Source of the DNA: Eubacteriales bacterium | GTDB lineage: Bacteria; Bacillota; Clostridia; Oscillospirales; CAG-272 | Length of the DNA stretch: 64,000 nucleotides | Direction of reading: 5' to 3' | Assembly (NCBI GenBank): GCA_045577925.1 | Contig: JAZNJH010000031.1 | Span: forward strand, 115,612 to 179,611 | Part shown: piece after piece, positions 1 through 18,436 of the stretch | How the letters are laid out: each line of letters begins with the position of its first letter | Numbering within the stretch: the first letter of the stretch is position 1 | The notes under the pieces: generated by a model | The model's input: the letters and a program-made list of their open reading frames with translations, nothing else | What the model was told of the DNA's origin: nothing | Database searches by the model: none | Position numbers and translations under genes: made by a program

Positions 1-70
1 TTGAAAGATGATAAAGTCCATATACTGTAAAAACTGCCACTAATATTTCAATAACGGTACTAAAGAACAT
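1..70 (-). CDS. Partial small membrane protein (MFFSTVIEILVAVFTVYGLYHLS...), runs off the window edge
   Basis: GGAGG SD, then ATG at 70; open hydrophobic frame to base 1. Confidence 0.55.
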   Translation of the reverse strand, partial: MFFSTVIEILVAVFTVYGLYHLS

Positions 71-140
71 AGAACCTCCATCAGCCAAACGGCAAAATTT
101 CTTTCACCTTCAGTCTATGCCATAAGTACCGTTATTGTCT

Positions 141-1316
141 TTATATAAGCTTTTTAAGCTCGTCGACAAGGTCGCATTTCTCCCAAAGGATGTCAGCTTC
201 CTCGCGTCCTACGTGACCGTATGCTGCAAGCTTTTTATATATCGGACGTCTTAATTTAAATCGTTCGATTATAGCCGCAGGTCTGAGGTCAACAAGCTTT
301 GTTACTGCTTCCGAGATTTTTTCTTCGTCTATTTTGCTTGTACCGAACGTATCAACAAGAACTGATACAGGCTTGGCTACACCGATAGCGTAAGCGATCT
401 GCACCTCACATTTATCTGCAAGTCCTGCCGCAACTATATTCTTTGCTATATATCGTGCCGCATATGATGCGCTTCTGTCAACCTTTGTCGGATCCTTACC
501 AGAAAATGCTCCGCCGCCGTGACGTGAATATCCTCCGTACGTGTCAACGATTATCTTTCTGCCTGTAAGACCGCTGTCTCCGTTAGGTCCGCCGATTACA
601 AAGCGGCCTGTGGGATTAACGAAGATCTTTGTTTCATTATCCATAAGTTTTTCGGGAATAACCGGCTTGATTACATTTTCAATAATGTCAGCTCTGATAG
701 TGTCGAGAGTAACGTTGTCGTCGTGCTGAGATGAAACTACCACTGTATCAACGCGTACAGGCTTGTCATCTTCATATTCAATTGTAACCTGTGTTTTACC
801 GTCAGGACGAAGATAACTGAGCTTGCCCGATTTACGCACATCTGTGAGCTTTCTTGCAAGCTTATGGGCAAGAGAAATAGGGAGCGGCATATACTCGGGT
901 GTTTCGTTGCAGGCATATCCGAACATAAGCCCCTGGTCACCAGCACCAATATCATACTCGTCTGAGATCTTTCCGTTTTTAGCTTCAAGTGATTTATCAA
1001 CGCCAAGTGCAATGTCGGCAGACTGTGTATGTACCGAGTTTATAACAGCGCACGTGTCACAATCAAAGCCGTATTTTGCTCTGTCATAACCTATTTCGCG
1101 AACTGTTTCGCGAACTATTTTCTGGTAGTCAACAACTGCATTTGTTGTAATTTCGCCGAGTATCATAACAAGACCTGTTGTTGTGCAAGTTTCGCAGGCA
1201 ACACGGGAATTTGGATCCTGTTCAAGTATTGCATCAAGTACAGCGTCCGATATTCTGTCGCATATTTTATCGGGATGCCCCTCGGTTACCGATTCAGAGG
1301 TAAAAAACTTCTTCAT
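141..1316 (-). CDS. metK: S-adenosylmethionine synthetase
   Basis: [19 protein letters not shown] and GGGAFSGKD motifs; 391 aa. Confidence 0.99.
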
Positions 1317-1337
1317 TTATAATTCCTTTCTAACGGA

Positions 1338-1369
1338 GAAAAACAGAGCGCCCTTGTTCCCAAGGGCGC
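1338..1369 (-). terminator. Intrinsic terminator forming the SAM-I expression platform
   Basis: 9-bp stem gcgcccttg/caagggcgc followed by TCTGTTTTT on the minus strand, between aptamer and metK SD. Confidence 0.8.
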
Positions 1370-1383
1370 GAGCTTTTATATTA

Positions 1384-1476
1384 CTCTCATCTCTCGGGAT
1401 TTAGCACCTTGCAACGTTTTCGTTGCAGGTTGCCGGGCTTCACAGGGCCAGTCCCTCCGCCGCTCTTGATAAGATT
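1384..1476 (-). ncRNA. SAM-I (S-box) riboswitch
   Basis: Minus strand reads CTTATCAAGAG-CGGCGGAGGGACTGGCCCTGTGAAGCCCG-GCAACC...GGTGCTAAATCC...GATGAGAG, upstream of metK. Confidence 0.95.
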
Positions 1477-1497
1477 ATTAAACTAATTGACGCTACA

Positions 1498-1526
1498 AGT
1501 ATAGCACATATAAACGAATATGTCAA
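1498..1526 (-). promoter_or_regulatory. Sigma-A promoter for the SAM-I/metK transcript
   Basis: TTGACA-17 nt-TATACT with extended TG. Confidence 0.8.
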
Positions 1527-1582
1527 TATTATATTACACAATTTCTCTTCCATCGACAAAAACTTTGACAAGATTAAGCTTC

Positions 1583-2059
1583 TTAATAAAACAAAGAAAT
1601 TACTGCCTTTACAAGCTGTGAGCCTACCGTCATTATTATTCCTGCCGTTACAACACCGGCAGAAATTGAAATTATTGACTTTGTCTTTGGGATATCGAAA
1701 ACAGAAGCAACGAGCGCACCCGTCCATGCTCCTGTTCCGGGCAATGGTATCGCAACAAAAACGTAAAGACCGAATACCGCGTATTTTTCTATTTTTTCGC
1801 GGTTTTTCTCTGCTTTTTCGTAAAGCCAGTTTGAAACTTTGGAGAAAAGTTTTACATTACATCCGCGCATCCATTTAAGTATTGCTTTTACAAACAGAAG
1901 TATAAACGGCGCAGGAATACAGTTTCCGATAATACTGATTATAAGCGTCGGAAGCCAGTCAAGTCCCATTCCCGTTCCTATTGGAACTGCTCCGCGCAGT
2001 TCAATAAGCGGTACCATAGATACACCGAAAACTATCAGATATTTTAAGAGTAAACTCAC
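1583..2059 (-). CDS. Small multidrug export family membrane protein (COG2426-like)
   Basis: PLIELRGAVP and FVAIPLPGTGAWTG motifs; GTG start at 2059 after GAGGT SD. Confidence 0.85.
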   Translation of the reverse strand: MSLLLKYLIVFGVSMVPLIELRGAVPIGTGMGLDWLPTLIISIIGNCIPAPFILLFVKAILKWMRGCNVKLFSKVSNWLYEKAEKNREKIEKYAVFGLYVFVAIPLPGTGAWTGALVASVFDIPKTKSIISISAGVVTAGIIMTVGSQLVKAVISLFY

Positions 2060-2075
2060 GGTATCAACCTCGTAA

Positions 2076-2669
2076 TTATTTGTGTAGTATTTTTGAAATG
2101 CGTTTATAGATAAGAAGTGCAAGAATCGAGCATAAGACGCCCTTTACGATATTAAAGGGTGCAACTGCAAATACTATCATGCTCTTAAGGTCAGCCACCC
2201 AAGGATTGAGTACACTTGCCATTTCAACAATTTTATCAAATGGCATTCCGAAAAACTCTGAGTAGAAGGGTATCATAATATAATAATTCAGAAATCCGCC
2301 AATTATTGCAAGCGACAGCGTCGAAGCTATCATCCCAATGACTGCCGATTTTATGTTTTTCTTATATTTATATATCAACGCCGCAGGAAGCACGAATGCG
2401 CATCCTGTTACGAAATTTGCAAATTCACCTACGTATGCCGTAGTTGTTCCGTTAATTATGATGTTAAGTATATTTTTTAACAGCTCTATCAGCACTCCTG
2501 CAAGCGGTCCAAGCGCAAAAGAGCCCATAAGAATCACTGATTCAGACAAATCAAGCTTATAAAAGCCCGGTGCAAACCATAACGGGAACTCAAAAAGCAT
2601 TATAATTGCACTAATAGCAGCAAGAGCTGCGACTTTTATTATGTACTTTAAGGTAGTATTTGTTTTCAT
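2076..2669 (-). CDS. ribU: ECF transporter S component, riboflavin-specific
   Basis: FEFPL..P.FYKLDLSE, ELLKN and PFNIVKG motifs; FMN riboswitch upstream; start reassigned to MKTNTT at 2669. Confidence 0.9.
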   Translation of the reverse strand: MKTNTTLKYIIKVAALAAISAIIMLFEFPLWFAPGFYKLDLSESVILMGSFALGPLAGVLIELLKNILNIIINGTTTAYVGEFANFVTGCAFVLPAALIYKYKKNIKSAVIGMIASTLSLAIIGGFLNYYIMIPFYSEFFGMPFDKIVEMASVLNPWVADLKSMIVFAVAPFNIVKGVLCSILALLIYKRISKILHK

Positions 2670-2733
2670 GTTATCTTCCCTTTCATAAAGCTTACTTATA
2701 CATATGAACAAACAGGAAAAGATAAACCGTAAT

Positions 2734-2760
2734 AAAAAAACTCCGCGAGATACCGCGGAG
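2734..2760 (-). terminator. Terminator of the FMN riboswitch expression platform
   Basis: ctccgcg/cgcggag stem followed by T7 on the minus strand. Confidence 0.85.
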
Positions 2761-2767
2761 CAACGGC

Positions 2768-2877
2768 ATCTTCTCTCATCCGGACTATACCGTCGGCTCA
2801 GGAATTTCACCTGATCGGCACTTTCGTGTTAGTGGGCTTTACCACCGGTATGGACTTACACCATTTCCCGAAGATAA
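2768..2877 (-). ncRNA. FMN riboswitch (RFN element)
   Basis: ATCTTCGGG...GGTGTAAGTCC..ACCGGTGGTAAAGCCCAC...GATCAGGTGAAATTCCTGAGCCGACGGTATAGTCCGGATGAGAGAAGAT, upstream of ribU. Confidence 0.95.
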
Positions 2878-2999
2878 TCCTATGCAGGGCTGAAAATCAG
2901 CCCTGCATAAGCATCTGTTGATATTTAACCGATTAAATTCGGCATTGCGAAAGGATTGTTCTAAAAGAATGATCCTTTCACAGTTGCGTAGCAACTGTT

Positions 3000-4205
3000 T
3001 TATTCAGCGATTTCAGTAACAACGCCTGAACCAACTGTTCTACCGCCTTCACGGATAGCGAAACGGAGACCCTTTTCAATAGCGATAGGTGTGATGAGCT
3101 CAACGTTCATGATTACGTTATCGCCGGGACGGCACATGTCTGTGCCTTCGGGAAGGTTGATTACGCCTGTAACGTCAGTTGTTCTGAAGTAGAACTGAGG
3201 TCTGTAACCTGTAAAGAAGGGCTTCTGACGTCCGCCTTCCTTTTCAGTAAGAACGTATACCTGACCTGCAAACTTTGTGTAGGGCTTGATGGAGCCGGGC
3301 TTACAAAGAACCTGACCTCTTTCGATACTCTCCTTACCAATACCACGGAGAAGCGCACCGATGTTATCGCCTGCTCCAGCTTCGTCCATGAGCTTGTGGA
3401 ACATTTCGATACCTGTGATAACAGTTGTCTTTGTTTCTTCTGTAAGACCAACGATTTCAACTGTATCAGACATCTTGAGCTGACCACGTTCTACACGACC
3501 TGTAGCAACTGTACCACGACCGGAGATCGAGAATACGTCCTCGACAGGCATAAGGAAGGGCTGGTCGCTCTTTCTGTCGGGAGTAGGAATATAGGAGTCA
3601 ACCTGCTCCATGAGTTCAAGAATAGGAGCGTATACAGGATCGGACTGATCTGTGCTTTCAGAAAGGAGAGCTTCACGAGCAGAACCCTTAACGATCGGAA
3701 TATCATCACCCGGGAAGTCGTACTGAGAAAGGAGATCGCGGATTTCCATTTCAACGAGATCGAGAAGTTCGGGGTCGTCAACGATATCGCACTTGTTCAT
3801 GAATACAACCATTGCGGGAACGCCAACCTGACGAGCGAGAAGCACGTGTTCACGTGTCTGCTGAAGAGGTCCGTCTGTACCTGCAACAACGAGGATAGCG
3901 CCGTCCATCTGAGCTGCACCGGTGATCATGTTCTTTACATAGTCAGCGTGGCCGGGGCAGTCAACGTGAGCGTAGTGGCGGTTAGCCGTTTCATACTCAA
4001 CGTGACGAGTGTTGATTGTGATACCTCTTTCTCTTTCTTCGGGTGCGTTGTCGATCTGGTCATATGCCATTGCTTCGATGTTAGCATTGCCGAGAGAGAG
4101 TGTCTTTGTGATAGCTGCTGTAAGAGTTGTCTTACCGTGGTCAACGTGACCGATTGTACCAATGTTAACGTGGGGCTTGGTACGTTCAAACTTAGCCTTT
4201 GCCAT
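3000..4205 (-). CDS. tuf: Elongation factor Tu
   Basis: [24 protein letters not shown] and NKCD motifs; 401 aa. Confidence 0.99.
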
Positions 4206-4281
4206 TTTGAATTCCTCCTGAATTATAAATGTTTTTGAATTTTTGTTTTTGTATTAACAGCCTTGCGGCTTTTAACTGTGA

Positions 4282-6363
4282 TTACTGATTCTTACCGCGC
4301 TTAGCGATAATTGCTTCCTGGAGGCTCTTAGGCACTTCTGCGAAGTGGCTGGGCTCCATAGAATAGGTTCCGCGTCCCTGTGTCATGGAACGAAGAGTTG
4401 TTGCATATCCGAACATTTCGGAAAGCGGGATCATTGCAGTTACCTGCTGACCGCCTGATACGGGATCCATAGACTGGATCTGTCCGCGCTTTGAGTTTAC
4501 GTGACCCATAACGTCACCGAGATAATCATCAGGAGTTACTACAACTACCTTAACGATCGGCTCAGTGATTACAGGATCAGCCTTTCTCATAGCTTCCTTG
4601 AATGCCATGGAAGCTGCGATCTTGAACGCCATTTCCGAAGAGTCGACTTCGTGGTACGAACCATCGTAAAGTGTGATCTTTACGTCAACAACATTGTAAC
4701 CTGCAAGTACACCGTTCTGCATAGCGCTCTGGAGACCTGCGTCAACTGCGGGGATATATTCCTTCGGAATAGCACCGCCGACAACCTTGTTTACGAATTC
4801 GTAACCGGCACCGGGTTCGTTGGGTTCCATTATGATCTTAACGTGACCATACTGACCCTTACCACCCGACTGGCGTGCCTACTTATGGTTAACTTCTGCG
4901 CTCTTGCGGATCGTTTCCTTGTATGCAACCTGAGGAGCACCAACATTCGCTTCTACCTTAAATTCACGGAGAAGTCTGTCTACGATGATCTCGAGGTGAA
5001 GCTCACCCATTCCGGCGATAATTGTCTGACCGGTTTCTTCATCGGTGTAGGTTCTGAATGTGGGGTCTTCTTCTGCAAGCTTTGCAAGTGCGATACCCAT
5101 CTTTTCCTGACCTGCTTTGGTCTTGGGCTCGATTGCTACGCTGATAACAGGTTCCGGGAATTCCATGGATTCAAGTATAATAGGATGCTTGTCATCACAG
5201 AATGTGTCACCTGTTGTTGTATTCTTAACGCCGCATACAGCTGCGATATCGCCTGAATAGCAAACATCGATATCTGCACGCTCGTTTGAATGCATCTGAA
5301 GGATTCTTCCGAATCTTTCGTGTGATTTTTTGGTGGAGTTATATACGCTCTCACCCTTGTTGATCTTACCAGAGTAAACTCTGAAGAAGCAGAGCTTACC
5401 AACGAATGGGTCTGTCATGATCTTGAATGCAAGTGCAGAGAAAGGTGCATTGTCATCAGCAGGTCTTTCATCCTCGTCACCTGTATCGGGGTTTACACCC
5501 TTGATCGCAGGAATGTCGAGAGGAGAAGGCATGTAGTCGATAACTGCGTCGAGCATCTTCTGTACGCCCTTGTTCTTATAAGATGTACCGCAAACTACGG
5601 GTACTATCTGGTTAGCAATTGTTGCCTTACGAAGAGCCTTCTTGAGTTCATCAATTGTAGGTTCTTCTCCGGAGCAGTACTTTTCAAACAGTTCTTCGTC
5701 TGTTTCGCAGATTGCTTCAACCATTGCTGCTCTGTATTCTTCGGCCTTATCTTTAAGGTCTGCGGGAATCTCTTCAACTCTCATGTCCTTACCGAGGTCA
5801 TCGTAATATACGTCTGCCTCCATGTTCATAAGGTCAACAATTCCGCGGAAATCTGATTCAGCTCCGATAGGAAGCTGTATCGGAATAGCATTAGCCTTAA
5901 GTCTGGACTTCATCATGTCTACAACTCTGTAGAAGTCTGCACCTGTGATATCCATCTTATTTACATATGCCATTCTCGGAACCTGGTATTTGTCAGCCTG
6001 ACGCCAAACGGTTTCAGACTGAGGCTCAACGCCGCCCTTAGCGCAAAGTACGGTTACTGAACCGTCGAGAACTCTGAGCGAACGTTCAACTTCAACTGTG
6101 AAGTCAACGTGACCGGGGGTATCGATAATGTTTATACGGTTACCCTTCCAGTAGCATGTTGTAGCAGCAGAGGTAATTGTAATACCTCTTTCCTGCTCCT
6201 GCTCCATCCAGTCCATCGTCGCGCCGCCATCGTGAGTTTCACCCATTTTATAGGTCTTACCTGTATAGAAAAGGATACGCTCTGTTGTGGTGGTCTTACC
6301 GGCGTCGATGTGAGCCATGATACCAATATTCCTTGTGTTATCAAGTGAATATTCTCTTGCCAT
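4282..6363 (-). CDS. fusA: Elongation factor G; one reading frame interrupted by an in-frame TAG at codon 495 (4879-4881)
   Basis: ORFs 4879..6363 and 4282..4830 are in the same frame (2082 nt = 694 codons); the join reads [24 protein letters not shown]. Confidence 0.97.
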
Positions 6364-6393
6364 TTGTTTCTCCTTGTTTTTGCAGTTGGGTTA

Positions 6394-6864
6394 TTAATAT
6401 CTGTAGTGTGCAAACGCCTTGTTTGCTTCAGCCATACGGTGAGTTTCTTCCTTCTTCTTAAAGGATCCACCTGTGCTGCCCACTGCATCAATTATTTCAG
6501 CCGCGAGTCTTTCGGCCATGGTTCTTTCGCCTCTTGATCTCGAATATGTTGTGATCCAACGGAGTCCGAGAGTCTGACGTCTCTCAGGTCTTACTTCCAT
6601 AGGAACCTGGTAAGTTGAACCGCCGATACGGCGAGCCTTTACCTCGAGAACGGGCATGATGTTTTCAAGTGCTTCATTGAACGCGTCGAGCGGGTTCTTC
6701 GAAAGCTTTGCTTCAACGATCGCAAACGCATCGTATACGATCTTCTGGGCTACGCCCTTCTTGCCGTCCAGCATAATGTTGTTGATAAGCTTTGTTACAA
6801 GCTTTGAATTATACAAAGGATCCGGCAAAACGTCTCTTTTGGAAATTTTTCCTCTTCTGGGCAT
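6394..6864 (-). CDS. rpsG: 30S ribosomal protein S7
   Basis: MPRRG...[13 protein letters not shown]; start at 6864 after AAGGAGG; 156 aa. Confidence 0.99.
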
Positions 6865-6944
6865 TGTACTTCCCTCCTTCATAAATAATGAATTCATAGG
6901 TACTCGAAAGTTTTCTCCCGTTATTGCTCCACCAGAAGAATTTC

Positions 6945-6988
6945 GCGGTAGTAGATATAAACACACGCATTATTTCTCTGAGGAAACA
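6945..6988 (-). repeat. Downstream arm of a long imperfect inverted repeat flanking rpsL
   Basis: Complementary to 7486-7528, with a 13-bp perfect core gtagatataaaca/tgtttatatctac plus 5-, 12- and 8-bp segments. Confidence 0.85.
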
Positions 6989-7064
6989 TAACTTATGATT
7001 TTTTCTTAATACCTCGCAGCTTTCGCTGCATTTTTGTTTGTGAAGCCTTTACCGCTTACGGTAA

Positions 7065-7481
7065 TTACTTCTTCTTAGGACGCTTTGCGCCGTACTTAGA
7101 ACGTGACTGCATACGGTTGTTCACGCCCTGTGCATCAAGAGTACCACGGATGATATGATAACGTACACCAGGCAGGTCACGTACACGTCCGCCTCTTATA
7201 AGAACAACAGAGTGTTCCTGAAGGCCGTGTCCGATACCCGGGATGTAGGTTGTCGCTTCCATGCCGTTTGTAAGTCTTACTCTGGCGATCTTACGAAGAG
7301 CCGAGTTAGGCTTCTTAGGGCTGGTTGTGGTAACCTTAGCACATACGCCTCTCTTCTGGGGAGAAGGCTGGTCGACCGCTTTCTTAGTAAGGCTGTTGAA
7401 GCCCTTCTGAAGAACAGGAGCCTTAGACTTGTAAGTCTTTTCCTGACGGCCGTGCTTTACAAGCTGGTTAAAGGTTGGCAT
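7065..7481 (-). CDS. rpsL: 30S ribosomal protein S12
   Basis: [18 protein letters not shown] and [12 protein letters not shown] motifs. Confidence 0.99.
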
Positions 7482-7485
7482 ACTG

Positions 7486-7528
7486 CACCTCCTTAAAGAA
7501 ATAATGTGATGTTTATATCTACAACCGC
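7486..7528 (-). repeat. Upstream arm of the rpsL-flanking inverted repeat; includes the rpsL SD
   Basis: Minus strand gcggttgtagatataaacatcacattatttctttaaggaggtg is complementary to 6945-6988. Confidence 0.85.
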
Positions 7529-7624
7529 TTCCTATAAGGTCTTTGGACCGAATATGACCCGGATGTATTCGTATTTATGCCGCGGGTTTTGGGCATAGTT
7601 TCCCTTACCGCAGAAATACACTCT

Positions 7625-7654
7625 ATTATAGCATTCTTTTTAGCTTTTTGTCAA
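7625..7654 (-). promoter_or_regulatory. Sigma-A promoter of the str operon
   Basis: TTGACA-18 nt-TATAAT with extended TG. Confidence 0.85.
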
Positions 7655-7759
7655 GAATCTGAGTGCGATTTACAAAAAATTCAAAAAATTCTCCGTTATG
7701 CACAAAACGTAAGTGGTCATTTTTATTATTTGTGCCAAAAAAGTGATAATTATTCAGCA

Positions 7760-9757
7760 TTAATCCACCGCCATAGCTATATAATCAGCACCATAAGTGG
7801 CAATGTAGTCCTTTCGCGCAGGCAGATCGTCACCAAGAAGTGTATCGAATATCCTTGCAGTTTCAAATGCATCGGCTTCAGTTACTCTTATAAGCCTTCT
7901 TGTTTCAGGGTTCATTGTCGTATGCCACATCATCTCAGGTTCGTTCTCGCCAAGTCCCTTTGAACGCTGTATTTTATATTTAGAGTCACCAAGCTTTGAC
8001 AGTATATCGATTTTCTCCTGCTCATTGTATGCAAAATGCGTATCATTTTTACAGGTTATTTCAAAAAGCGGAGATTCGGCAATATAAACTCTTCCCTCTT
8101 TTATAAGAGTCGGCAGCAAGCGGTAGAACAGTGTCAGAATAAGAGTTCTGATCTGATATCCATCCTCATCCGCATCGGTACATATTATTATCTTGCTCCA
8201 ACGAAGCGAGCTTATATCAAACGCAGGAAGATCGCTTTTCACTTTTTCGGTAAACTCAACTCCGCAACCGATAACCTTAAGGAGGTCTGTGATTATCGGG
8301 CTTTTGAATATCTTATCGTATGCGCTCTTTAAGCAGTTAAGCGTTTTACCGCGCACGGGGATTATTGCCTGGAATTCCGAATCACGCCCGAGTTTTACAG
8401 ACGTAAGCGCAGAGTCACCCTCAACTATATACAGTTCTCTGATTTCGGGATCATGGCTTCTGCAGCTTACAAACTTTTCAACCCTATTAGCAATGTCTAT
8501 ATTACCCGTAAGCTTCTTTTTCAGGCTGAGCCTTGTCGTTTCAGCCGTTTCGCGGCTTCGTTTGTTAAGAAGGATCTGCTCGCCTATTCTCTTTGCGTCA
8601 ACAGGATTCTCGATAAAGTAAATCTCGAGGTTCTTTTTTATAAATTCGGTCATCGCATCGGCAATGAACTTATTTGTAATAGCTTTTTTCGTCTGGTTTT
8701 CATACGACGTTTGTGTTGAGAAGCTATTGGTTACAAGTACAAGGGATTCCTTTACGTCATCAAAAGTAATCTTTGCCTCGTTTGTCTTATATGCTTTTGA
8801 GTTTTTAAGGAACTTATCAATAACACTGACAAAAGCTGCTCTTACAGCCTTGTCCGGAGAACCTCCGTGCACAAGGAAGCTTGAGTTGTGATAATATTCG
8901 ATACAGCTTACGTTCTTTGAAAAAGCAAATACTATATCCGCTTTCAGCTTGTAATCCTTCTGGTCTTCTCTGTCGCGTCCTTTTGTTTCGAGTGTCCACG
9001 AAACGTTTGATGTGAGTGTATCCTGACCTGCAAGCTTTGTCAGATAATCGGAAATGCCGTTTTCATACACGTATTCATGACGCTCAGTAGTGTTATCGCT
9101 GCTCTGGTAGTTGAGAACAAACTTGACACCCGCATTAACTACCGCCTGTTTATCAAGAAGCTCTGTAAAATACTCTTTCGATATATTTATATCTGTAAAA
9201 ACCTCAAGGTCGGGCTTCCAACGGATTATAGTACCGGTTCTTATTTCTTTTTTTGAAAGCTCTGTAACCTCAAGCTCACCCACAGGATTGCCTTTTTCGA
9301 AATTCATCACCGAGAGAGTTTTGCCGTTATAAGAGCGGACAGTCATATATTCAGAGCTGTACTGCGTTGCACATGCTCCGAGTCCGTTAAGTCCCAGCGA
9401 ATATTCATAATTGGCATTTTCGTCGTTATTGACATACTTACCGCCTGCATACATCTCGCAGAAGATAAGTTCCCAGTTATATCTCTGTTCAACCTCATTA
9501 TAGCCCATAGGTATACCGCGTCCTCGGTCTTCTACCTCATATGAGCCATCGGCAAACACATTTACGGTAATCTCCTTGCCAAAACCCTCTCTCGCCTCGT
9601 CAACTGAGTTTGAAAGGATTTCAAAAAACGAGTGCTCGCAGCCCTCAAGCCCGTCTGATCCGAAAATTACCGCCGGACGCTTACGGACTCTGTCCGCTCC
9701 TTTGAGCGAGGTTATACTGTTATCGCCGTATTCAACAGGTGTTTTTGTTTTCGCCAT
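7760..9757 (-). CDS. Type IIA topoisomerase B subunit (GyrB/ParE family)
   Basis: GHKL motifs EILSNSVDE, DRGRGIP and GLNGLG; TOPRIM motifs IVEGDSA, PVRGK and TDADEDG; RSKGLGE. Confidence 0.93.
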   Translation of the reverse strand: MAKTKTPVEYGDNSITSLKGADRVRKRPAVIFGSDGLEGCEHSFFEILSNSVDEAREGFGKEITVNVFADGSYEVEDRGRGIPMGYNEVEQRYNWELIFCEMYAGGKYVNNDENANYEYSLGLNGLGACATQYSSEYMTVRSYNGKTLSVMNFEKGNPVGELEVTELSKKEIRTGTIIRWKPDLEVFTDINISKEYFTELLDKQAVVNAGVKFVLNYQSSDNTTERHEYVYENGISDYLTKLAGQDTLTSNVSWTLETKGRDREDQKDYKLKADIVFAFSKNVSCIEYYHNSSFLVHGGSPDKAVRAAFVSVIDKFLKNSKAYKTNEAKITFDDVKESLVLVTNSFSTQTSYENQTKKAITNKFIADAMTEFIKKNLEIYFIENPVDAKRIGEQILLNKRSRETAETTRLSLKKKLTGNIDIANRVEKFVSCRSHDPEIRELYIVEGDSALTSVKLGRDSEFQAIIPVRGKTLNCLKSAYDKIFKSPIITDLLKVIGCGVEFTEKVKSDLPAFDISSLRWSKIIICTDADEDGYQIRTLILTLFYRLLPTLIKEGRVYIAESPLFEITCKNDTHFAYNEQEKIDILSKLGDSKYKIQRSKGLGENEPEMMWHTTMNPETRRLIRVTEADAFETARIFDTLLGDDLPARKDYIATYGADYIAMAVD

Positions 9758-9983
9758 GTCATTTTCCTTTCGGTGATTTTTAACGTCTATTAGTTATTGT
9801 ATCACAAATCTTTGATTTTGAAAAGAGTTTTTTCGTTTTTTAATTTCAGATTGCCTTTACAAACTATATCGCTGATGTTGACTTGGACATTTATAGATGC
9901 TATAATATATTGTAGATATTTTTGTTTATATTGCTTTTCCCGGGGAATAATACACTAAGCACCTATTGCAAAGGAGCCTCCCC

Positions 9984-10706
9984 TTGAAAAGAAAGCATAA
10001 CAGAAGTAAAGCCTCAATACTTGTTGAACTCAAAGCCCTCAAGATAAAAAATAAATCAAACGAAGCACGCATAGCATCTCTTGAAGAAAAACTGGAAAAA
10101 GCAAGCATTGCTCTGCAAACTGTAAAAACTGCTTCACCGGAGATAGCAATAGACAATTACGAAAGTTACTTTAAGTATAAATATAACTCCCTTAAAAGTA
10201 CTGCCGTATGGAGCACTGCCGGACGTGTATTTACGTATTCAAGGCGATCGCTTTTGGTTGCAAGGCTTTTAAGGTATGCTTCTATTATAATAGCATTTGT
10301 TGAAACAAGTGCAGTTTTTCTCTTGTTTTCAACAATCTTGCTTATTGCGCTCCCTGCAACGCTGTTAATCGGGCTCATACTTATAGTTGTTGATGCCGTA
10401 TCCGGCAAAAAGAATAAAGATAAAGTATTATCAGCTGTAAATGACAAAAAAATCCTTATTTTGATCGCGCACAAAGGTTACAGGAAAAACAGAAGCACTT
10501 ATTTTGATTCTATGGTACGCGAATATGCAAAAGACGGAAGATACTGCGTTATAGTCGTTTCCAAATCTCTCATTGACGGGCCTTTTTTAACCGCTAAATT
10601 CCAAAGTAAAAACCTGATAATAATTCGCGAAAGCTATTTCTTTAGGCTCAAACGCGCCATTAATAAAGCTGAACTATACAAAGAAAAAGTGATCATCGTA
10701 TATTGA
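9984..10706 (+). CDS. Hypothetical membrane protein (N-terminal coiled coil, two TM helices)
   Basis: TTG start after AAGGAG; hydrophobic central hairpin; TTGACT-17-TATAAT promoter at ~9878-9906. Confidence 0.7.
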   Translation: MKRKHNRSKASILVELKALKIKNKSNEARIASLEEKLEKASIALQTVKTASPEIAIDNYESYFKYKYNSLKSTAVWSTAGRVFTYSRRSLLVARLLRYASIIIAFVETSAVFLLFSTILLIALPATLLIGLILIVVDAVSGKKNKDKVLSAVNDKKILILIAHKGYRKNRSTYFDSMVREYAKDGRYCVIVVSKSLIDGPFLTAKFQSKNLIIIRESYFFRLKRAINKAELYKEKVIIVY

Positions 10707-10727
10707 CAAAAAAACAAGGAGTAAAAA

Positions 10728-13700
10728 ATGCTAAGTATAGTGTACGGAATACCCGGAACTCCCAAAAGCACTCATGTATATTCACTCGCGCTTAACAACT
10801 TAAAGTCCGGTGGCACGAGTATTCTCGTTGTGCCCGAGCAGGAATCGGTTTCAGCAGAGCGAAAGATATACAATATGTCAGGCGATATACCGCTTCTGGG
10901 CCTGGAAGTTTTAAATTTTGACAAGCTGGCTGAGGCTGTTTTCAAAAAATGCGGTTTTCTCTCGTACAAATATATTACAGACAGCACAAAAAAATTGTTG
11001 CTTTCGAGAGTGCTAAGTGATATAGCACCCGCTCTTTCAGAGTTTTCTTCCCGTCATGATGACCCGAATTTCATTTCCACAATGCTATCGCAGATAAATG
11101 AGTTCAAATACGCAAAAATCACACCCGAAGCCCTTGCCAAGACTTCAGAACTCATTAAAACAAGCTCAGGCGAAAGCTCTGACCGACTTATAAACCGCAT
11201 AAACGAACTCGCTCTTATTTTCGCTTCCTACAACTCAACTGTAAACGATATGACAAGCGATCCTTGTGATAATCTCTCCAAGTGTGCCGAACTGATACGA
11301 AAGAACGATCCTTTTAACGGTGCTTGTTTTTATTTTGATTCTTTCAACGGCTATACCGCGCAGGAGTTTGATATAATATCTGCACTGCTGCACACCGGTG
11401 TCAACGTTACGGTAACGCTGACACACCCCGGCACTGACAATGCAGACGAGCTTTTTGATTTTACAGAGGTTACCCGTAACAAACTCAGAGCCTGCGCACA
11501 AAGGGAAAATCGTCCGGTCACCGAAACAATACTAAGCGAAAGCACGTATTACAAATCTGATTCCGTATCACATATTGCAAACCATTTTACAACATCGCAT
11601 GAAACTGAAAAATATACAGACAAATCCGACATTCATATAATCTCTTGCGCAGATATATTTGATGAATGCGAGAGCTGTGCATCGCTTATCGCTAAAGATA
11701 TCCGTAGCGGAATGAGATATCGTGATATAGCAATAATTTTCAGAAATCCGGATAATTATAAGGGTTTCATCGATGAAGCGCTTGAGCGTTACAATATCCC
11801 CTGCTTTTTCTCGGATAAAACCGATATACTTGAAAAATCGCTCACCCGATTTATTTTCGCAGCTCTTGAGATCTGCAACAGTGGAGCAAAATATACGGAT
11901 ATTATTACATATCTCAGATGTGGGCTCACTTCTCTTTCACAGTATGAAACAGACCTGTTAGAAAACTACGTTTCAACATGGAAGGTTTCAGGTAAGATCT
12001 GGTACAGCGACGAAGGTTTTACGATGAATCCGCGCGGATATATGCCGCTTACAGCTTCTGATGCAAAAGCACTCGATAATGTCAATTCCCTGCGTCAAAG
12101 GGTTATGGTCAACATCGAATCTCTACGTGAAAAATTAAAAGAATCCAAAACAGTTGAGCAGTTTTCATCAAGTATATTTGGATTTGTAAGCGAGTCAGAA
12201 GTATGTGAAAAGCTCGCTGCGCGCGCAAAGTTAATGGAGAATCAGGACGAAAAGGTCCTGGCACTTGAAGAAGCAAGCTTGTTAAATGCACTCTCTGCTG
12301 CTCTTGACGAGCTTGTATCATCAATAGGAGACCATGAATGCGGCCTTGAAGAATTCATCAAGCTTTTCAGAATGGTCCTGTCTGACACCGAAATAGGAAC
12401 TATACCTGAATCGGCCGACACTGTAACGATAGGTGATGCTTCGCTTTTGCGCTTACACGACGTTGAAAGTGTTTATATGCTCGGATGTAATGAGGGGCAG
12501 TTTCCAAGAAGCATCTCCGCTCCCGGCCTATTATCCTCGGACGAAAGAAAAATTCTCTTTGAAAACAGTCTTGACGATATTTTGTTTGATCCTGCCTCAG
12601 AGTCCCTGAAAGAATTATTCTATTTCTATCTTTCTGCATGTTCTCCTTGTTCAAAACTCACACTTATGCATATAAGACGTAATTTAAGCGGTGAGGATCT
12701 ATTTGAGTCTTCTGCATTAACACGCATTTCCAACATGTTTAATGCCGCGTCGGTAGACTCAGGCGAGACAAACACTTTGGACAGAATTGTTGATAATGAC
12801 TCTTTCATCGAGCATATTCCCTTCCTTAAAGAGAAAACAGATCCGTCTGTTCTTAACACTTTCATAGAAGCAGACCCGAAGCTGAAGGCTGAACGTAACA
12901 TTTTTGAAAATGCGGCTTTTACCTCAGACGAACGGATTTCAAAGCAGGCTGTGAACTATGCCTTTCCGGGCGATATTTGCATTACGCAGTCTGCAACCGA
13001 CCTCTATGCAAAGTGCCCCTTTTCCTTCCAATGCAAGTATGCTCTCAAGCTCAAAGAAAAGCCGTCAGACTCTATAGAATTTTCTGATCTTGGAACGCTC
13101 ATACATTCGATTCTTGACGATTTTCTTAAAGAAGAAGTCAGGCTCAACAAGGAAAGCATTTGCACAGATCCTGATGAAATATACAGAAAAATCAAAGACA
13201 TAACCGACAAGCGCTCCAAAATACTCTTGGAATTTACCGCAGAAGAAAAACGAGCGCGAGTATCACGAATGCTCAAGCGTGTTGCCGATATAACTGCACT
13301 TACAGCCGCAAATCTCGCTGAAGAGTTTTCACAAAGCGGCTTTACTCCCTCGTTCTTTGAGTTTCCCGTCAGCACAAGCTCAAGCGGAGGTCTTTTGCCT
13401 ATAAAGCTGAAGCTTGAGGACGATAGTTATATACTTCTTGGCGGAATCGCCGACAGAATTGATACTATGGTAAAATCGGGAAAGCTCTATATACGCGTTG
13501 CCGATTATAAAACAGGAACTCGAAGCTTTTCGCTTGAAAGCATACGTATGGGGTTAAGCCTGCAGCTTTTGATATATCTCTTCTCCATCTGGGAAAATGC
13601 TGATACCAGCTTCAAAACAACTGTTGGTGCTGATCCTGATGCTGAAATCATACCTGCAGCGGCTGAATACGTTATGACAACACCTGATTTCACACGCGTA

Positions 13701-14087
13701 GATGCTGACAGCGGGGATTTTGGCAAAAAGCTCGAAAAGATATTCAAGAGAAGCGGAATATACCTTGCCGATCCTGAAATCATTGAGGATATGGACAGAG
13801 GAACAAGCGGCAGATATATACCGGTAAAATCAAATATTAAACCGCTTTCAGGCTCAGAGCTTGCAACGCTTGACGAATTCAACGATCTTAAAAATGAAGT
13901 AAGTGGTATACTCACTGAGATTGGTAACGGAATAAAAAGCGGAAATGCTGCAATTTCCCCGATAGAAAAGCTCCCGGAAACAAATTGCAGCGCATGTACA
14001 TACTGCCCTATGAAGCCTGTGTGTAAAAATGCTGCTTATGGCAACACTGCTTATAACGATGAAGAAAACGATACTAACACTGACTGA
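10728..14087 (+). CDS. addB: ATP-dependent helicase/nuclease subunit B
   Basis: VVPEQ; inactive helicase core; PD-(D/E)xK nuclease GIADRID...DYKTG; Fe-S cysteines CPF...CTYCPMKPVC. Confidence 0.95.
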   Translation: MLSIVYGIPGTPKSTHVYSLALNNLKSGGTSILVVPEQESVSAERKIYNMSGDIPLLGLEVLNFDKLAEAVFKKCGFLSYKYITDSTKKLLLSRVLSDIAPALSEFSSRHDDPNFISTMLSQINEFKYAKITPEALAKTSELIKTSSGESSDRLINRINELALIFASYNSTVNDMTSDPCDNLSKCAELIRKNDPFNGACFYFDSFNGYTAQEFDIISALLHTGVNVTVTLTHPGTDNADELFDFTEVTRNKLRACAQRENRPVTETILSESTYYKSDSVSHIANHFTTSHETEKYTDKSDIHIISCADIFDECESCASLIAKDIRSGMRYRDIAIIFRNPDNYKGFIDEALERYNIPCFFSDKTDILEKSLTRFIFAALEICNSGAKYTDIITYLRCGLTSLSQYETDLLENYVSTWKVSGKIWYSDEGFTMNPRGYMPLTASDAKALDNVNSLRQRVMVNIESLREKLKESKTVEQFSSSIFGFVSESEVCEKLAARAKLMENQDEKVLALEEASLLNALSAALDELVSSIGDHECGLEEFIKLFRMVLSDTEIGTIPESADTVTIGDASLLRLHDVESVYMLGCNEGQFPRSISAPGLLSSDERKILFENSLDDILFDPASESLKELFYFYLSACSPCSKLTLMHIRRNLSGEDLFESSALTRISNMFNAASVDSGETNTLDRIVDNDSFIEHIPFLKEKTDPSVLNTFIEADPKLKAERNIFENAAFTSDERISKQAVNYAFPGDICITQSATDLYAKCPFSFQCKYALKLKEKPSDSIEFSDLGTLIHSILDDFLKEEVRLNKESICTDPDEIYRKIKDITDKRSKILLEFTAEEKRARVSRMLKRVADITALTAANLAEEFSQSGFTPSFFEFPVSTSSSGGLLPIKLKLEDDSYILLGGIADRIDTMVKSGKLYIRVADYKTGTRSFSLESIRMGLSLQLLIYLFSIWENADTSFKTTVGADPDAEIIPAAAEYVMTTPDFTRVDADSGDFGKKLEKIFKRSGIYLADPEIIEDMDRGTSGRYIPVKSNIKPLSGSELATLDEFNDLKNEVSGILTEIGNGIKSGNAAISPIEKLPETNCSACTYCPMKPVCKNAAYGNTAYNDEENDTNTD

Positions 14088-14125
14088 TTATAGTTCGTTT
14101 CATCAGATTACTGAGGAAGATAAAA

Positions 14126-17100
14126 ATGGCTAATAATGCTGTAAACTGGACGCCGATGCAATCGGCGGCGATTGAAACAAAAAATAAAACTTTGCTCGTC
14201 TCTGCCGCGGCGGGAAGCGGAAAAACTGCTGTGTTAACTGAGCGGATAGTAAAGCGCCTTTGCGACAAAAATGATCCCGCAGACATATCACGCATGCTTA
14301 TCGTAACTTATACAAAAGCTGCTGCAAACGAGCTTAAGGTTCGTATATCAAAAGCAATAACAGCTGCCATCGCACAAGACGTTACAAACAAGCATTTACG
14401 CAAACAGCTTTTACTTTTATCAAGCGCCAAAATATCAACGATACATAGTTTTTGCTTTGACGTTGTCAAAAGCAATTCAAAAGCCCTGGGGCTACCTGCG
14501 GCTATAACTATCGCGGGAGAGCCTGAGCTTCTGATACTCTCCCGTCAGATCATGTCAAAGGTTATAGACGATGCATACAACAATATTTTTGAGCCCGAGC
14601 ACATTCCCGAAAGGTTTTATGAGCTTACCGATATCTTTTCTCCACGCACAAGCGACAGCGCTATGTGTGAAGCTCTTATTAAAATATATACTACCCTGCA
14701 GAATTATCCTGAAGGCATAGACTTTCTCAAAATGTGTTCAGAGGAGCTTGGCAAGGAAGCATCACTTGAAATTTATCAGAGCAGACACGCTGAAATTATC
14801 ATTTCAAAGATAGGTTCTTACGCAAAATACTTATTAAGTGAATATAAGACCATTGAAAGCGCTATTAAATCTGACGAAATTTTATATCCCAAATGTGCAG
14901 CTCTGCTTTCTGACGAAATCAGCTTTCTCGAGTCAATAACCGACAACATAAAAAATGAAAAGTTCAACCTTGTATATAAGGTATTCAATGCGTTCTCCAT
15001 AACAAGATTTCCTACAATAGCTAAATATTCTTCGCAGATCAAAGAAGACTATAAATCACTCAGGGAAAAGCTTAAGGGCGAGGTTATAGCTAAGCTTAAA
15101 GATCTTTTTGGCAAAGATGCAGACATACTTCGTGAAGAGACGAAAATTACGTCAGAGCTGATATTCACCGTATATGCTCTGTTATACAGATTTGACAAAC
15201 TTTTCACCAAAGAGAAAAAACGCCTCGGCCGACTGGACTTCAGCGATCTTGAGCACTATACCCTTGACCTTTTATACCAAAACGGCTCTCCAAGTGATAT
15301 TGCACGTGAAATATCTGACTCGTTTGATGAAATATACATTGACGAATATCAGGATACAAACTATGTTCAGGATCTGATCTTTTCTTCTATAGCAAAGCCA
15401 AACAACCGCTTTATGGTTGGCGACATAAAGCAGAGTATTTACGGTTTCCGTGGTGCTGCTCCCGAAAGCTTTTCAGGTTACCGCGATACTTTCGAAGCTT
15501 ATGAAAGCGAAGCGGGCAAAAACTCATCTTCAAACACAATATTTTTGTCAAGCAACTTCAGATGCGACAGTACGGTTGTCGACTTCTGCAATACCGTCTT
15601 TTCATGTTTATTCAGAAATGCAACAGGGAGAATACCGTATTATGATTCAGACAACCTTGAGTGTTCAAAGATCGACGCTTATAAGAGCACTTCGCCTGTA
15701 CATGTAGTTCTTGCAGGTGAAAACAGCAACTCGGAATCTGAATATATCAGCGAAGCCGAGTACATTGCACGCGAGGTAAAAAGGCTTATAAAAAGCGAAA
15801 AGAAAAAGGACGGAACACCTATCAGGCCGTCGGATATTGCCATACTTACAAAAGCAAGAGCATCTTCAATACCGATTGAAAAGGCTCTTAACGATTTGTC
15901 CATACAATGCTCAAACAATATTGAAACCGAATTTTTCGAAAATTCAGAAATTCTGCTTGTTATGGCTTTGTTAAACACGATCGACAATCCCCTGCGCGAC
16001 ATCTATCTTGCAGGTACACTTAAAAGTCCCTTATTTAATTTTACTCTTGATGACCTTGTTATAGTCCGTGCTTTCGACAGAACAAAATCGCTTTATGAAG
16101 CACTAACTTTATATACTGACCAAACGGGTTTTGAAAAAGGCAAATATTTCCTTGAAAGATTAGATTATTTCAGAACGCTGGCTTCAGGAAGCAAGGTTGA
16201 CCGTCTTATCCGTAAGCTTTACCATGAGTGCGGTCTTTTCAAAATAGTATGCGCATCTCTTCCTGACGGTGCAAGACCTGAATCAGCGCGCGACAATCTT
16301 GTGCTTTTATACAAATATGCAAGGGATTTTGAAGCGAGCTCCTTTAAAGGATTAAACAGTTTTATACAGTACGTTAACGATATAATCGCGCAAAAGACAA
16401 AGATACCCGTAAAATCAAAGGCAAGCTCAACAGATGCGGTTCAGATAATGACGATCCATGCATCGAAAGGTCTTGAATTCCCGGTAGTTTTTCTTGCCGC
16501 AGCTCACAAAAGAACAAACACTCAGGACAAAAGTAACGTTATACTGATTGACAGGCATGCAGGGGCTTCGATTGATCTTCCGGGTCCAATACTCGGTTTG
16601 AAGAAAAAAAGCTTTCATAAAAAAGCTCTGGAATATGTATACAACGATAACACGTACGAAGAAACTATGCGTGTACTTTACGTTGCGCTGACACGTGCAA
16701 GAGAGAGACTATATATAACGGGCGAATATAAAGACCCTGAGAATGAATATGAGAAAGTAAGTAAAGAGGCTTTAAACGTCTGCCCATATACTATTTTAAA
16801 AAATCATCCTTATATGAGACTTGTGCTTATACCCGTTTTATCTGCAGATTACAGCTCTGACGATAAGTGCAGAATAATTATGCCAAAGCTTGACAAGGCA
16901 GATACGACTGATGATATTCAAAATTCAGTGCAACTCATACCTGATAAGCAAGATTCACAAAATATCTTAGATCAGATAAGATATCAGCTTGATTTTGTAT
17001 ATCCTCACGCGAGTTCTCTCGATATTCCCTCCAAGCTTTCCGTTTCTTCTCTTTCAGGATCAGTTCTTGATGAGGGCGTTTCATTCGAAGCTGACGAAAA

Positions 17101-17737
17101 CACTCTTCTTAACAAGCTTCTTGATACAAAGCCTGCTTTCATTACAAAAACGTCAAAGGAAGCAACGGCTGCAGACCGCGGTACTGCTACACACGTTTTC
17201 ATGCAGTTCTGCAATTTTAAGCACATTGAAGAAAACGGCGTTCAGAAAGAGATCGAACGCTTGCTTTCTTTGAATTATTTTGGCAGTGAAACGGCAGAGC
17301 TTATAAACTTAGAACAAGTTGAAAAGTTCTTCGGGGGCTCGCTATACAATGACATTATAAAACGTGCAACAAAGCTCTGGCGTGAATATCGCTTTAACGT
17401 TGAATTGCCGGCACACGTGTTTACAAATGATCCCAAAAAGCAAGAAGCACTCAAGGGTGAAAATCTGTTCGTTCAGGGTATAATTGACTGTTTTACTCAA
17501 AATCCTGATGAAAGCTTCACTCTTATAGACTACAAGACTGACCATATGCCTTTTTCAATGAAGGAAAGCGAAAAAGATTTTGAAGCTTTACTTGCAAAAA
17601 GGCACTCTGAACAATTAAAGTATTACAAACGCGCACTTGAAATTATAACAAAAAAGCCGGTTAATAATGTTCTTATATATTCTTTTGCACTTAACAAAGC
17701 GATTGATATAACCGAGATGTGTGATTTTAAAAATTGA
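14126..17737 (+). CDS. addA: ATP-dependent helicase/nuclease subunit A
   Basis: AAAGSGKT, IDEYQD, VGDIKQSIYGFR, TIHASKGLEF and YVALTRA; C-terminal QGIID..DYKTD. Confidence 0.97.
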   Translation: MANNAVNWTPMQSAAIETKNKTLLVSAAAGSGKTAVLTERIVKRLCDKNDPADISRMLIVTYTKAAANELKVRISKAITAAIAQDVTNKHLRKQLLLLSSAKISTIHSFCFDVVKSNSKALGLPAAITIAGEPELLILSRQIMSKVIDDAYNNIFEPEHIPERFYELTDIFSPRTSDSAMCEALIKIYTTLQNYPEGIDFLKMCSEELGKEASLEIYQSRHAEIIISKIGSYAKYLLSEYKTIESAIKSDEILYPKCAALLSDEISFLESITDNIKNEKFNLVYKVFNAFSITRFPTIAKYSSQIKEDYKSLREKLKGEVIAKLKDLFGKDADILREETKITSELIFTVYALLYRFDKLFTKEKKRLGRLDFSDLEHYTLDLLYQNGSPSDIAREISDSFDEIYIDEYQDTNYVQDLIFSSIAKPNNRFMVGDIKQSIYGFRGAAPESFSGYRDTFEAYESEAGKNSSSNTIFLSSNFRCDSTVVDFCNTVFSCLFRNATGRIPYYDSDNLECSKIDAYKSTSPVHVVLAGENSNSESEYISEAEYIAREVKRLIKSEKKKDGTPIRPSDIAILTKARASSIPIEKALNDLSIQCSNNIETEFFENSEILLVMALLNTIDNPLRDIYLAGTLKSPLFNFTLDDLVIVRAFDRTKSLYEALTLYTDQTGFEKGKYFLERLDYFRTLASGSKVDRLIRKLYHECGLFKIVCASLPDGARPESARDNLVLLYKYARDFEASSFKGLNSFIQYVNDIIAQKTKIPVKSKASSTDAVQIMTIHASKGLEFPVVFLAAAHKRTNTQDKSNVILIDRHAGASIDLPGPILGLKKKSFHKKALEYVYNDNTYEETMRVLYVALTRARERLYITGEYKDPENEYEKVSKEALNVCPYTILKNHPYMRLVLIPVLSADYSSDDKCRIIMPKLDKADTTDDIQNSVQLIPDKQDSQNILDQIRYQLDFVYPHASSLDIPSKLSVSSLSGSVLDEGVSFEADENTLLNKLLDTKPAFITKTSKEATAADRGTATHVFMQFCNFKHIEENGVQKEIERLLSLNYFGSETAELINLEQVEKFFGGSLYNDIIKRATKLWREYRFNVELPAHVFTNDPKKQEALKGENLFVQGIIDCFTQNPDESFTLIDYKTDHMPFSMKESEKDFEALLAKRHSEQLKYYKRALEIITKKPVNNVLIYSFALNKAIDITEMCDFKN

Positions 17738-17750
17738 AGGATATAAAGAT

Positions 17751-18422
17751 ATGATAATATGTGAACATAAAGCCTTTGAAAGAATACTTTCGCTCGGGTT
17801 TTGCGATACGGCAATACCTGTATCTGTAAGACAAAACGTGGGCGAAGAAGTTATTATAACAGCCCTGCCGTCGCTGAAAAATACTGTCAAAGCTTTTCAA
17901 AAGCTCTTTGAGGGAAGATATTTTTCAAAGCAAGCGCATGCATGGCTTAGAGAGAAAGTGCGTCCATTCATGTATGAAATCGGATACAAGGATAACAGAC
18001 AAAGCAGAAAAATAACACAGATAATGACAAGACCGGGTCACTCTTCTCTGCCCGATGGCAATTGTCATATACTCAAATCCGACATGCCAAATCTCACCTC
18101 AGCTGACGTTTCATCTCTTATTGAATTCGGTCATATAGTAGCCGCAAAAACGCTTGATAATAAAATAGTGTCCGTAGCATATACAAACCTTGACCCCATC
18201 GGCTGCAGTGCTGTTGAGATCGGAGTTGAAACAGCATCGGGTTACAGGCAACGCGGATTTGCGAAAGATGCATTGTGTACGCTTATAAACGAGCTTGAGA
18301 GAATGAACATTTCTCCGATATACGTCTGTTCAAAGACCAACCGCGCGTCAATAAAGCTTGCAGAGTCTTTGAATTTTGAAACAGAAGCATTTGAATACAA
18401 CTACGTATTCAGGCGCATTTAA
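17751..18422 (+). CDS. GNAT-family acetyltransferase
   Basis: C-terminal VETASGYRQRGFA and N.ASIKLAESLNF motifs; ATG at 17751. Confidence 0.8.
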   Translation: MIICEHKAFERILSLGFCDTAIPVSVRQNVGEEVIITALPSLKNTVKAFQKLFEGRYFSKQAHAWLREKVRPFMYEIGYKDNRQSRKITQIMTRPGHSSLPDGNCHILKSDMPNLTSADVSSLIEFGHIVAAKTLDNKIVSVAYTNLDPIGCSAVEIGVETASGYRQRGFAKDALCTLINELERMNISPIYVCSKTNRASIKLAESLNFETEAFEYNYVFRRI

Positions 18423-18436
18423 GGAAGGTAAAAACA

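Follow-up and report, generated by a model that had tools for sequence, protein, structure and literature searches.

The window, by which we mean the whole stretch of 64,000 nucleotides analysed here, carries a str operon on its minus strand. A perfect sigma-70 type promoter drives the four genes rpsL-rpsG-fusA-tuf, which are arranged as follows:

7625..7654, minus strand: promoter of the str operon (TTGACA, an 18-nt spacer with TG, TATAAT; hexamers matched at 12/12 positions)
7065..7481, minus strand: rpsL, ribosomal protein S12, 138 aa (Pfam PF00164, 116 bits)
6394..6864, minus strand: rpsG, ribosomal protein S7, 156 aa (PF00177, 223 bits)
3000..6363, minus strand: fusA and tuf, the downstream genes in the operon
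4282..6363, minus strand: fusA (EF-G), from its translation
3000..4205, minus strand: tuf (EF-Tu), from its EF-Tu domains

As judged from the position of the promoter, transcription of the operon would start near 7617. The rpsL leader, 3' of the promoter, is ~135 nt long, and the spacer between rpsL and rpsG measures 200 nt in the window. The mRNA strand showed no terminator-like site in 6300..8000, a region that includes everything from the promoter to rpsG. Upstream of the operon lie a gene for a topoisomerase subunit of the GyrB/ParE type and addB, the latter on the other strand. The MAG that contains the window measures 1.68 Mb (89% complete) and also has an RNase III gene (135 bits). The nearest named records to the locus are MAGs of uncultured gut Eubacteriales and Clostridia.

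Two minor features of the downstream part of the operon may be mentioned here. An in-frame TAG lies inside fusA (window 4879-4881, minus strand), between VNHK and ARQSGG of the translation, and the same codon reads TAT (Tyr) in 4/4 other genomes of the window's genus. This TAG most probably stems from an error of one base in assembly or sequencing, or else represents a minority allele of the MAG; recoding is less likely. Downstream of tuf, the minus strand carries an FMN riboswitch (window 2764-2879, 104 bits) and a SAM-I riboswitch (window 1384-1475, 74 bits).

The rpsL leader can pair with the spacer on the far side of the gene. The parts concerned are:

7486..7528, minus strand: 5' arm of the long-range helix, -47 to -5 relative to the rpsL AUG
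7488..7493, minus strand: rpsL Shine-Dalgarno sequence (SD) AGGAGG, -12 to -7, partly within the 5' arm
6945..6988, minus strand: 3' arm of the long-range helix, 77-120 nt past the rpsL stop

An earlier, sequence-only reading had proposed these arms in a pairing register of 5+13+12+8, and both the minus-strand reading and our repeat search agree with it. The search returned one pair of arms of 19 nt at 95% (6945-6963/7510-7528) and one of 17 nt at 88% (6968-6984/7490-7506). The first 5+13 bp contain one mismatch and are followed by 12 bp. The enclosed loop of ~500 nt holds exactly rpsL (7481..7065, Pfam S12) plus short flanks, just as had been claimed. The robust stretch of the 5' arm is 7528..7495 (-47 to -14), and the 5' end of the 3' arm, UGUUUCCU, is anti-SD-like.

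Co-folding bore out the proposed pairing. RNAduplex joined the isolated arms by 38 pairs (22 AU, 12 GC and, in its variant, 4 GU) with an energy of -46.2 kcal/mol. When both arms were shuffled (n=1000), the mean was -13.5 kcal/mol (sd 3.3) and the minimum -30.7 kcal/mol. The minimum free energy (MFE) structure of the full 771-nt transcript retained the helix (z -5.2; 0/20 shuffles as good). In the partition function the stretch from -47 to -14 was paired with p ~1.0, and forbidding the helix cost 28–33 kcal/mol. These results show that the helix is present in the str-operon mRNA and that, in the folding models, it is thermodynamically dominant. A search of sequencing runs found none that contained half of the words of the stretch; in four RNA runs, the contigs carried coding parts of relatives (90–95% likeness) and covered neither 6939-7024 nor 7498-7660, and hence neither arm.

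The end of the helix at the SD is weak. The pairing probability was 0.45–0.65 for AAGGA, the first half of the SD, the GGUG/UGUU wobble end was not predicted, and in the MFE structure 0/6 bases of the rpsL SD were paired with the spacer. The earlier claim that the helix covers the SD hence stands in part: the helix abuts and partly covers it, but full coverage is not predicted.

The 64-kb window contains seven inverted repeats of at least 17 nt with arms <800 nt apart. The pair that flanks rpsL is the sole widely spaced one among these seven that is at least 95% complementary. Rfam matches in positions 1..20000 of the window at E≤1 were confined to the FMN and SAM riboswitches, with no match to an r-protein leader or rpsL motif; an interrupted helix of such a span could not be a single Rfam family model anyway.

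Next, we consider the family to which the window belongs. Our sample consisted of one genome per genus and covered 68 of the 83 same-family genera having an S12 match (15 from a first set and 53 from further sets), leaving out 15 genera with a more divergent S12 (E-value above 5e-72). The local complementarity between a leader and its own spacer scored 46.7 on average, compared to 31.3±6.6 for 408 cross-genus pairs. It exceeded the 95th percentile of this control in 39/68 genera, the 99th percentile in 32/68 and the maximum in 15/68. Likewise, the duplex energy was -40.8 for own pairs and -29.8 for cross pairs.

Folding of the full-length sequences gave a similar picture. At least 15 leader-spacer pairs were found in the MFE structure of 50/68 genera (median 28), while 18/68 genera had fewer than 15 long-range pairs, including eight that had none. 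When the leader was swapped with that of another genus, at least 15 pairs still formed in 24/68 (median 9.5). The control remains this high since the sequence of the helix core is conserved too, which means that, going by the alignment, something besides pairing would constrain the core. The core spans ~18–20 bp, with the family sequences UAUAUAAACAUUAAAUUU in the 5' arm and AAAUUUAAUGUUUAUAUA in the 3' arm, and ~18 nt of both arms are conserved across genera.

The core motifs UAAAC (leader) and GUUUA (spacer) were both present in 36 genera and both absent in 24. Eight genera had the 3' motif without the 5' motif and none had the reverse; kin genera do not count as independent here. Where a genus lacks the core, an unrelated sequence often forms a helix in this position (e.g., L012, L018, L020, L021, L131, L151). 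Similarly, the outer and the SD-proximal parts of the helix stay paired with unrelated sequences across genera. The relation to the SD varies: at least 4/6 bases of the rpsL SD were paired to the spacer in 21/68 genera and no base in 35/68. In 34 of the 50 genera whose folds had 15 or more long-range pairs, the helix ended within the SD or at most 3 nt from it.

In 15 other families of the order, represented by one genome each, the long-range score exceeded the control p95 in only two, and few of the more distant named loci passed this threshold. The leader-spacer helix therefore appears to be essentially a family trait. The few distant loci that passed include three Butyricicoccus-like records from outside the family (L051, L055, L094), in which leader and spacer form a different, perfect helix of 14 bp (CUGAAAUAAAUCUA / UAGAUUUAUUUCAG) at equivalent positions. 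Such a helix may be an independent or a diverged version of the same architecture.

A chance inverted repeat without function would have the A/T richness of the arms in its favour, and nothing more. It is refuted by the conservation data, because the helix is conserved and covaries over 68 genera. In addition, not one shuffled pair of arms in the window came near the energy of the real pair, and no other repeat of such wide spacing occurs in the 64 kb.

Covariation was scored on a MAFFT alignment (A1) made blind to structure, in which 18 core pairs were counted. Standard pairs occupied 74.5% of the cells at these positions, compared to 33.6–48.4% when the partner was slid by 1–3 columns. The covariation score was 0.214, against a shuffle mean of 0.141 (0/500 shuffles reached 0.214) and values of 0.059–0.123 for slid partners. 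At three of the pairs, AU and UA were each found in many sequences (26/13, 21/11 and 14/14, respectively). The compensatory changes that the sequence-only reading had suggested as a check are thus seen across the family.

It also occurs close to the window. In the window's own genus, a U-A pair of the middle segment has become C-G by a double change (L004 vs L008/L011), and one species of this genus carries a perfect GCACCUC in place of the wobble-rich partner of the SD. RNAalifold did not recover the helix from the 1021-column alignment; there, and also on the spacer alone, it found only a small hairpin, CGGAAG/CUUUCG. It misses the helix because the flanks are too gappy, and therefore the helix pairs were named by hand and counted. 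Taken together, the alignment shows a helix that is conserved and covaries within the family.

The four outermost proposed pairs (columns 101-104/813-816) were paired in only 46% of the cells, and were dropped from the covariation set. In single genera, a G+C-rich outer extension (leader GCGUC, spacer GACGC) follows past an internal loop.

Covariation does not in itself distinguish RNA from DNA, since concerted change at the two copies of an inverted DNA repeat would produce it as well. For this reason we examined strand preference. In the cells of the core, G·U (96) outnumbered A·C (54). Counted per sequence, G·U exceeded A·C in 38, was less frequent in 11 and equal in 19. The sense score was higher than the antisense score in 44 genera, tied in 3 and lower in 21. 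This suggests, at modest strength, that selection acts on the RNA of the mRNA strand.

The strand bias is absent in the window itself, where the duplex of the opposite strand is equally stable (-47.3 vs -46.2 kcal/mol). The G-U wobbles of the window alone, which had been offered as a sign of selection on RNA, consequently carry no weight. The broader claim of selection at the RNA level retains the support of the family-wide covariation and the excess of G·U over A·C, but not that of the wobbles.

The alternative would be that the arms are paired protein-binding or recombination sites in the DNA around rpsL, with incidental pairing of the RNA. This would account for arms conserved in sequence beyond their complementarity, and fits the equal stability of either strand in the window. 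Yet, the G·U excess and the sense scores described above run against it, as does the maintenance of pairing by unrelated sequences in the outer and SD-proximal parts. Moreover, rpsL is essential, and an inversion that separated it from its promoter would kill the cell. The immediate neighbours, the topoisomerase subunit gene and addB, include no recombinase or regulator. We therefore regard a DNA-level repeat as highly improbable.

Immediately 3' of the 3' arm lies a second conserved element, which forms the leader of rpsG:

6869..6920, minus strand: conserved rpsG-leader element, putative S7 operator (from the alignment of 68 genera)
6905..6920, minus strand: hairpin CGGGAG-AAAA-CUUUCG of this element
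6899..6905, minus strand: GAGUACC, invariant
6888..6898, minus strand: UAUGAAUUCAU of this element
6869..6880, minus strand: rpsG SD GAAGGAGGGAAG

The element has the layout GAGUACC…UCAU…GAAGGAGGG. GAGTAC and the rpsG SD GAAGGAGGGAA were invariant in 68/68 genera, with UAUGA-NN-UCAU between them. The hairpin, CGGAAG/CUUUCG in the family, was paired in 90% and showed 12 GC-to-AU double changes. The element was also present in 15/15 other families of the order (one genome each), and a strict pattern for it had exactly one match in 64/401 genomes of the class and none in the reversed control. Its range thus extends well past the family in which the long-range helix is found. No match to it was found in Rfam.

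The element is located between rpsL and rpsG, which is the position of the S7 operator of E. coli. By this analogy it is likely to be an S7 operator and is a candidate S7 autoregulatory leader of Clostridia. The long-range helix is linked to S7 by its adjacency to the element. In the str operon of E. coli, S7 is autoregulated and S12 is retroregulated (PMC3616713; PMC10931766). Our system resembles the E. coli system, as far as these sources describe it, in that the same operon and the same spacer are involved and the upstream gene rpsL would be regulated from a downstream site.

There are differences as well. The E. coli S7 structure is reported not to be conserved outside the Gammaproteobacteria, and in the passages concerned retroregulation is ascribed to destabilisation of the mRNA rather than to a helix between leader and spacer. 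Unlike the E. coli S7 element, the rpsL-rpsG spacer has no significant resemblance to 16S rRNA: four spacers were locally aligned to 16S, and their scores stayed within the shuffle range. The 16S query came from another family of the order, since none was found in the window's MAG or in five family MAGs. Binding of S7 to the spacer is putative.

Several further observations concern the spacer. GAGUACCU gives the impression of a resemblance to GAAUACGU of 16S rRNA, at alignment scores that are not significant. A junction helix AGGUAU/GUACCU, which would have tied the arm to the rpsG element, was rejected, as it was paired in 74.7%, equal to the shuffle mean, and had no covariation support. In ~25/68 spacers (e.g., L025, L019, L142, L163, L165), though absent in the window, a motif GCCCGUC(U/A)GA occurs 10–25 nt upstream of the 3' arm. 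This motif may pair weakly with AGGAGG. Alternatively, it could pair with a conserved GACGnGC downstream of the arm, in a local fold that would compete with the leader. It also matches GCCCGUCA of 16S rRNA.

What might the helix do? We put at about one half the probability that it is a long-range repressor, acting in cis on ribosome loading at rpsL and probably coupled to S7 autoregulation, to RNase III decay or to both. The rpsL leader (~-47 to -14, and through the SD in some genera) would pair with the rpsL-rpsG spacer, so that the duplex would take up the 5' arm, an A/U-rich stretch for ribosome loading just ahead of a very strong SD. The 3' arm would be transcribed ~550 nt after the 5' arm, leaving initiation unhindered up to that point. 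From then on, the duplex should reduce the access of 30S subunits to rpsL, and would offer two helical turns of dsRNA to RNase III. In this manner, S12 output could be set below that of EF-G and EF-Tu from the same transcript.

Both arms lie outside the reading frame, and hence the helix could persist during rpsL translation. Because the 3' arm adjoins the rpsG element, the likely S7 operator, the helix would be well placed to relay S7 feedback upstream. Feedback passed to rpsL in this way would provide a structural route for an E. coli-like 'retroregulation' of S12. Since the genome contains an RNase III gene, there is room for both a timer and an RNase III mechanism. That the effect is repression rather than activation, that S7 binds beside the helix and that RNase III cuts it are all three steps that we infer.

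Possibly, the helix goes further and forms one arm of an operon-spanning r-protein sensor, in which S7 (or S12) bound at GAGUACC would lock a pseudoknot-like fold that shuts the starts of both rpsL and rpsG. We put this forward tentatively. If true, it would be the first structural mechanism for the 'retroregulation' of an upstream cistron, and a new, gene-spanning class of r-protein regulatory RNA in Clostridia.

Repression is not the only effect that a helix at this place might have. In pre-16S and pre-23S rRNA, complementary flanks form a long stem around a functional unit, and this stalk is the substrate of RNase III. The pre-rRNA stalk encloses a stable RNA, whereas the stem described here encloses an mRNA cistron and has a ribosome binding site at its foot. 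As in a dsRNA stalk, the sequences flanking the unit make about two near-continuous turns.

The helix might accordingly be purely a processing stem, cut by RNase III to release a monocistronic rpsL mRNA and a separate rpsG-fusA-tuf mRNA of different stability, with no direct effect on initiation. This explanation is favoured by dsRNA that runs nearly unbroken over 18–20 bp and has extensions in most genera, by a duplex that flanks exactly one gene and by the RNase III gene of the genome (135 bits). It would also fit a helix that stops short of the SD in most genera (35/68 without a spacer-paired SD base). However, the sequence requirements of RNase III are slight, while ~18 nt of both arms show sequence conservation. 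In addition, a mere stalk would not be required to abut the SD, as the helix does in 34/50 genera. We therefore consider a stem that serves processing only to be unlikely.

Conversely, the helix might be a positive or protective clamp. It would then shield the rpsL segment from 5' exonuclease or endonuclease, or gather the start and stop of rpsL and the start of rpsG. The latter variant would favour re-initiation and translational coupling of S12 and S7 across a spacer of 130–240 nt. A clamp agrees with arms that lie outside the coding region, where rpsL translation need not melt the helix, and with an SD that is not within the long-range helix in the MFE structure of the window.

There are partial parallels for a clamp in other bacteria. 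In B. subtilis, RNase J1 is reported to be blocked on the hbs mRNA by ribosomes that initiate at a strong SD, and an interaction of the 5' and 3' UTRs controls the action of ribonucleases and couples stability to translation (PMC5737220). Like the rpsL helix, the hbs interaction joins untranslated regions on either side of a gene within one mRNA, although hbs is monocistronic. In E. coli, coupling between S12 and S7 runs through the structure of the spacer, by the account in PMC3616713. A clamp would nevertheless sit awkwardly with a 5' arm that covers the region just upstream of a strong SD, with coverage of the SD itself in 21/68 genera, which is the usual signature of repression, and with the anti-SD-like sequence at the end of the arm, which is retained within the window's genus. 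On balance, we think a clamp quite improbable.

Repression by the long-range helix has its closest precedent in icaR of Staphylococcus aureus. There, a region downstream of the coding sequence pairs with the SD region, which blocks the initiation complex and creates a substrate for RNase III (PMC3868564). Both in icaR, so described, and, as a computational result, in rpsL, the 5' UTR pairs with a region past the stop codon, across the whole gene. In icaR, the monocistronic mRNA of a regulator, the pairing is made by a short UCCCCUG motif of the 3' UTR. In contrast, the rpsL helix has ~20–40 bp and its 3' arm lies in an intercistronic spacer, followed by rpsG, fusA and tuf. Unlike the icaR pairing in that account, it belongs to a polycistronic, essential operon, is situated for the most part 5' of the SD, adjoins a second conserved element and is conserved over a whole family, and what is known of it comes from sequence.

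A second precedent comes from B. subtilis, where anti-SD-like pyrimidine-rich sequences hundreds of nucleotides downstream pair with the ribosome binding site in vivo. This long-range pairing inhibits initiation and promotes decay, according to a 2025 bioRxiv study (PMC12697547). The sequences used there were engineered 8-mers, of a kind that is described as depleted from natural genes, whereas the rpsL helix is natural, far longer and conserved. The rpsL helix could thus be the natural counterpart of these engineered effects.

A helix between leader and spacer around rpsL, or in the str operon, is not described in the open-access literature that we searched, supplements aside. The earlier statement that the architecture is undescribed can therefore be kept for rpsL and the str operon, but not for long-range pairing in general, given the precedents in icaR and B. 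subtilis. Naville and Gautheret report rpsL leaders of the terminator type from other phyla (PMC2965389). The quoted part of Table 1 of Eckert and Weinberg contains no S12 or S7 leader (PMC7247131). A 2024 review regrets that studies of S7 regulation have been confined to E. coli and cyanobacteria (PMC10931766).

Gene-spanning mRNA helices with both conservation and covariation support are rare in bacteria. They are rarely seen because comparative RNA discovery treats single intergenic regions. Should the helix prove functional, each leader ought to be paired with its downstream spacers when r-protein leaders are searched for. The rpsL helix offers a concrete, testable model for the control of S12 and S7 synthesis in Firmicutes-like bacteria, and for the way in which an operator could influence a cistron that lies upstream of it.

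Finally, the 5'-proximal part of the rpsL leader has a fold of its own:

7582..7611, minus strand: leader hairpin, with ACUAUGCCCA in its loop and stem

An AUG at 7596 opens a frame of 25 codons, whose stop UAG (7521..7519) lies within the 5' arm of the long-range helix. A ribosome halting at this stop would melt the helix. The motif YUAUGYC occurs on the sense strand of 18/68 leaders and on the antisense strand of 5/68, and CUAUGCC in 11/68 leaders. A conserved leader peptide starting from CUAUGCC was rejected, because the length of the frame varies from 2 to 179 codons among genera. Hairpins with ACUAUGCCCA(A/U) were seen in ten further leaders (L015, L019, L023, L130, L132, L133, L138, L147, L152, L158), and this sequence resembles the start regions of both rpsL (GUAUGCCA) and rpsG (AAUGCCCA).
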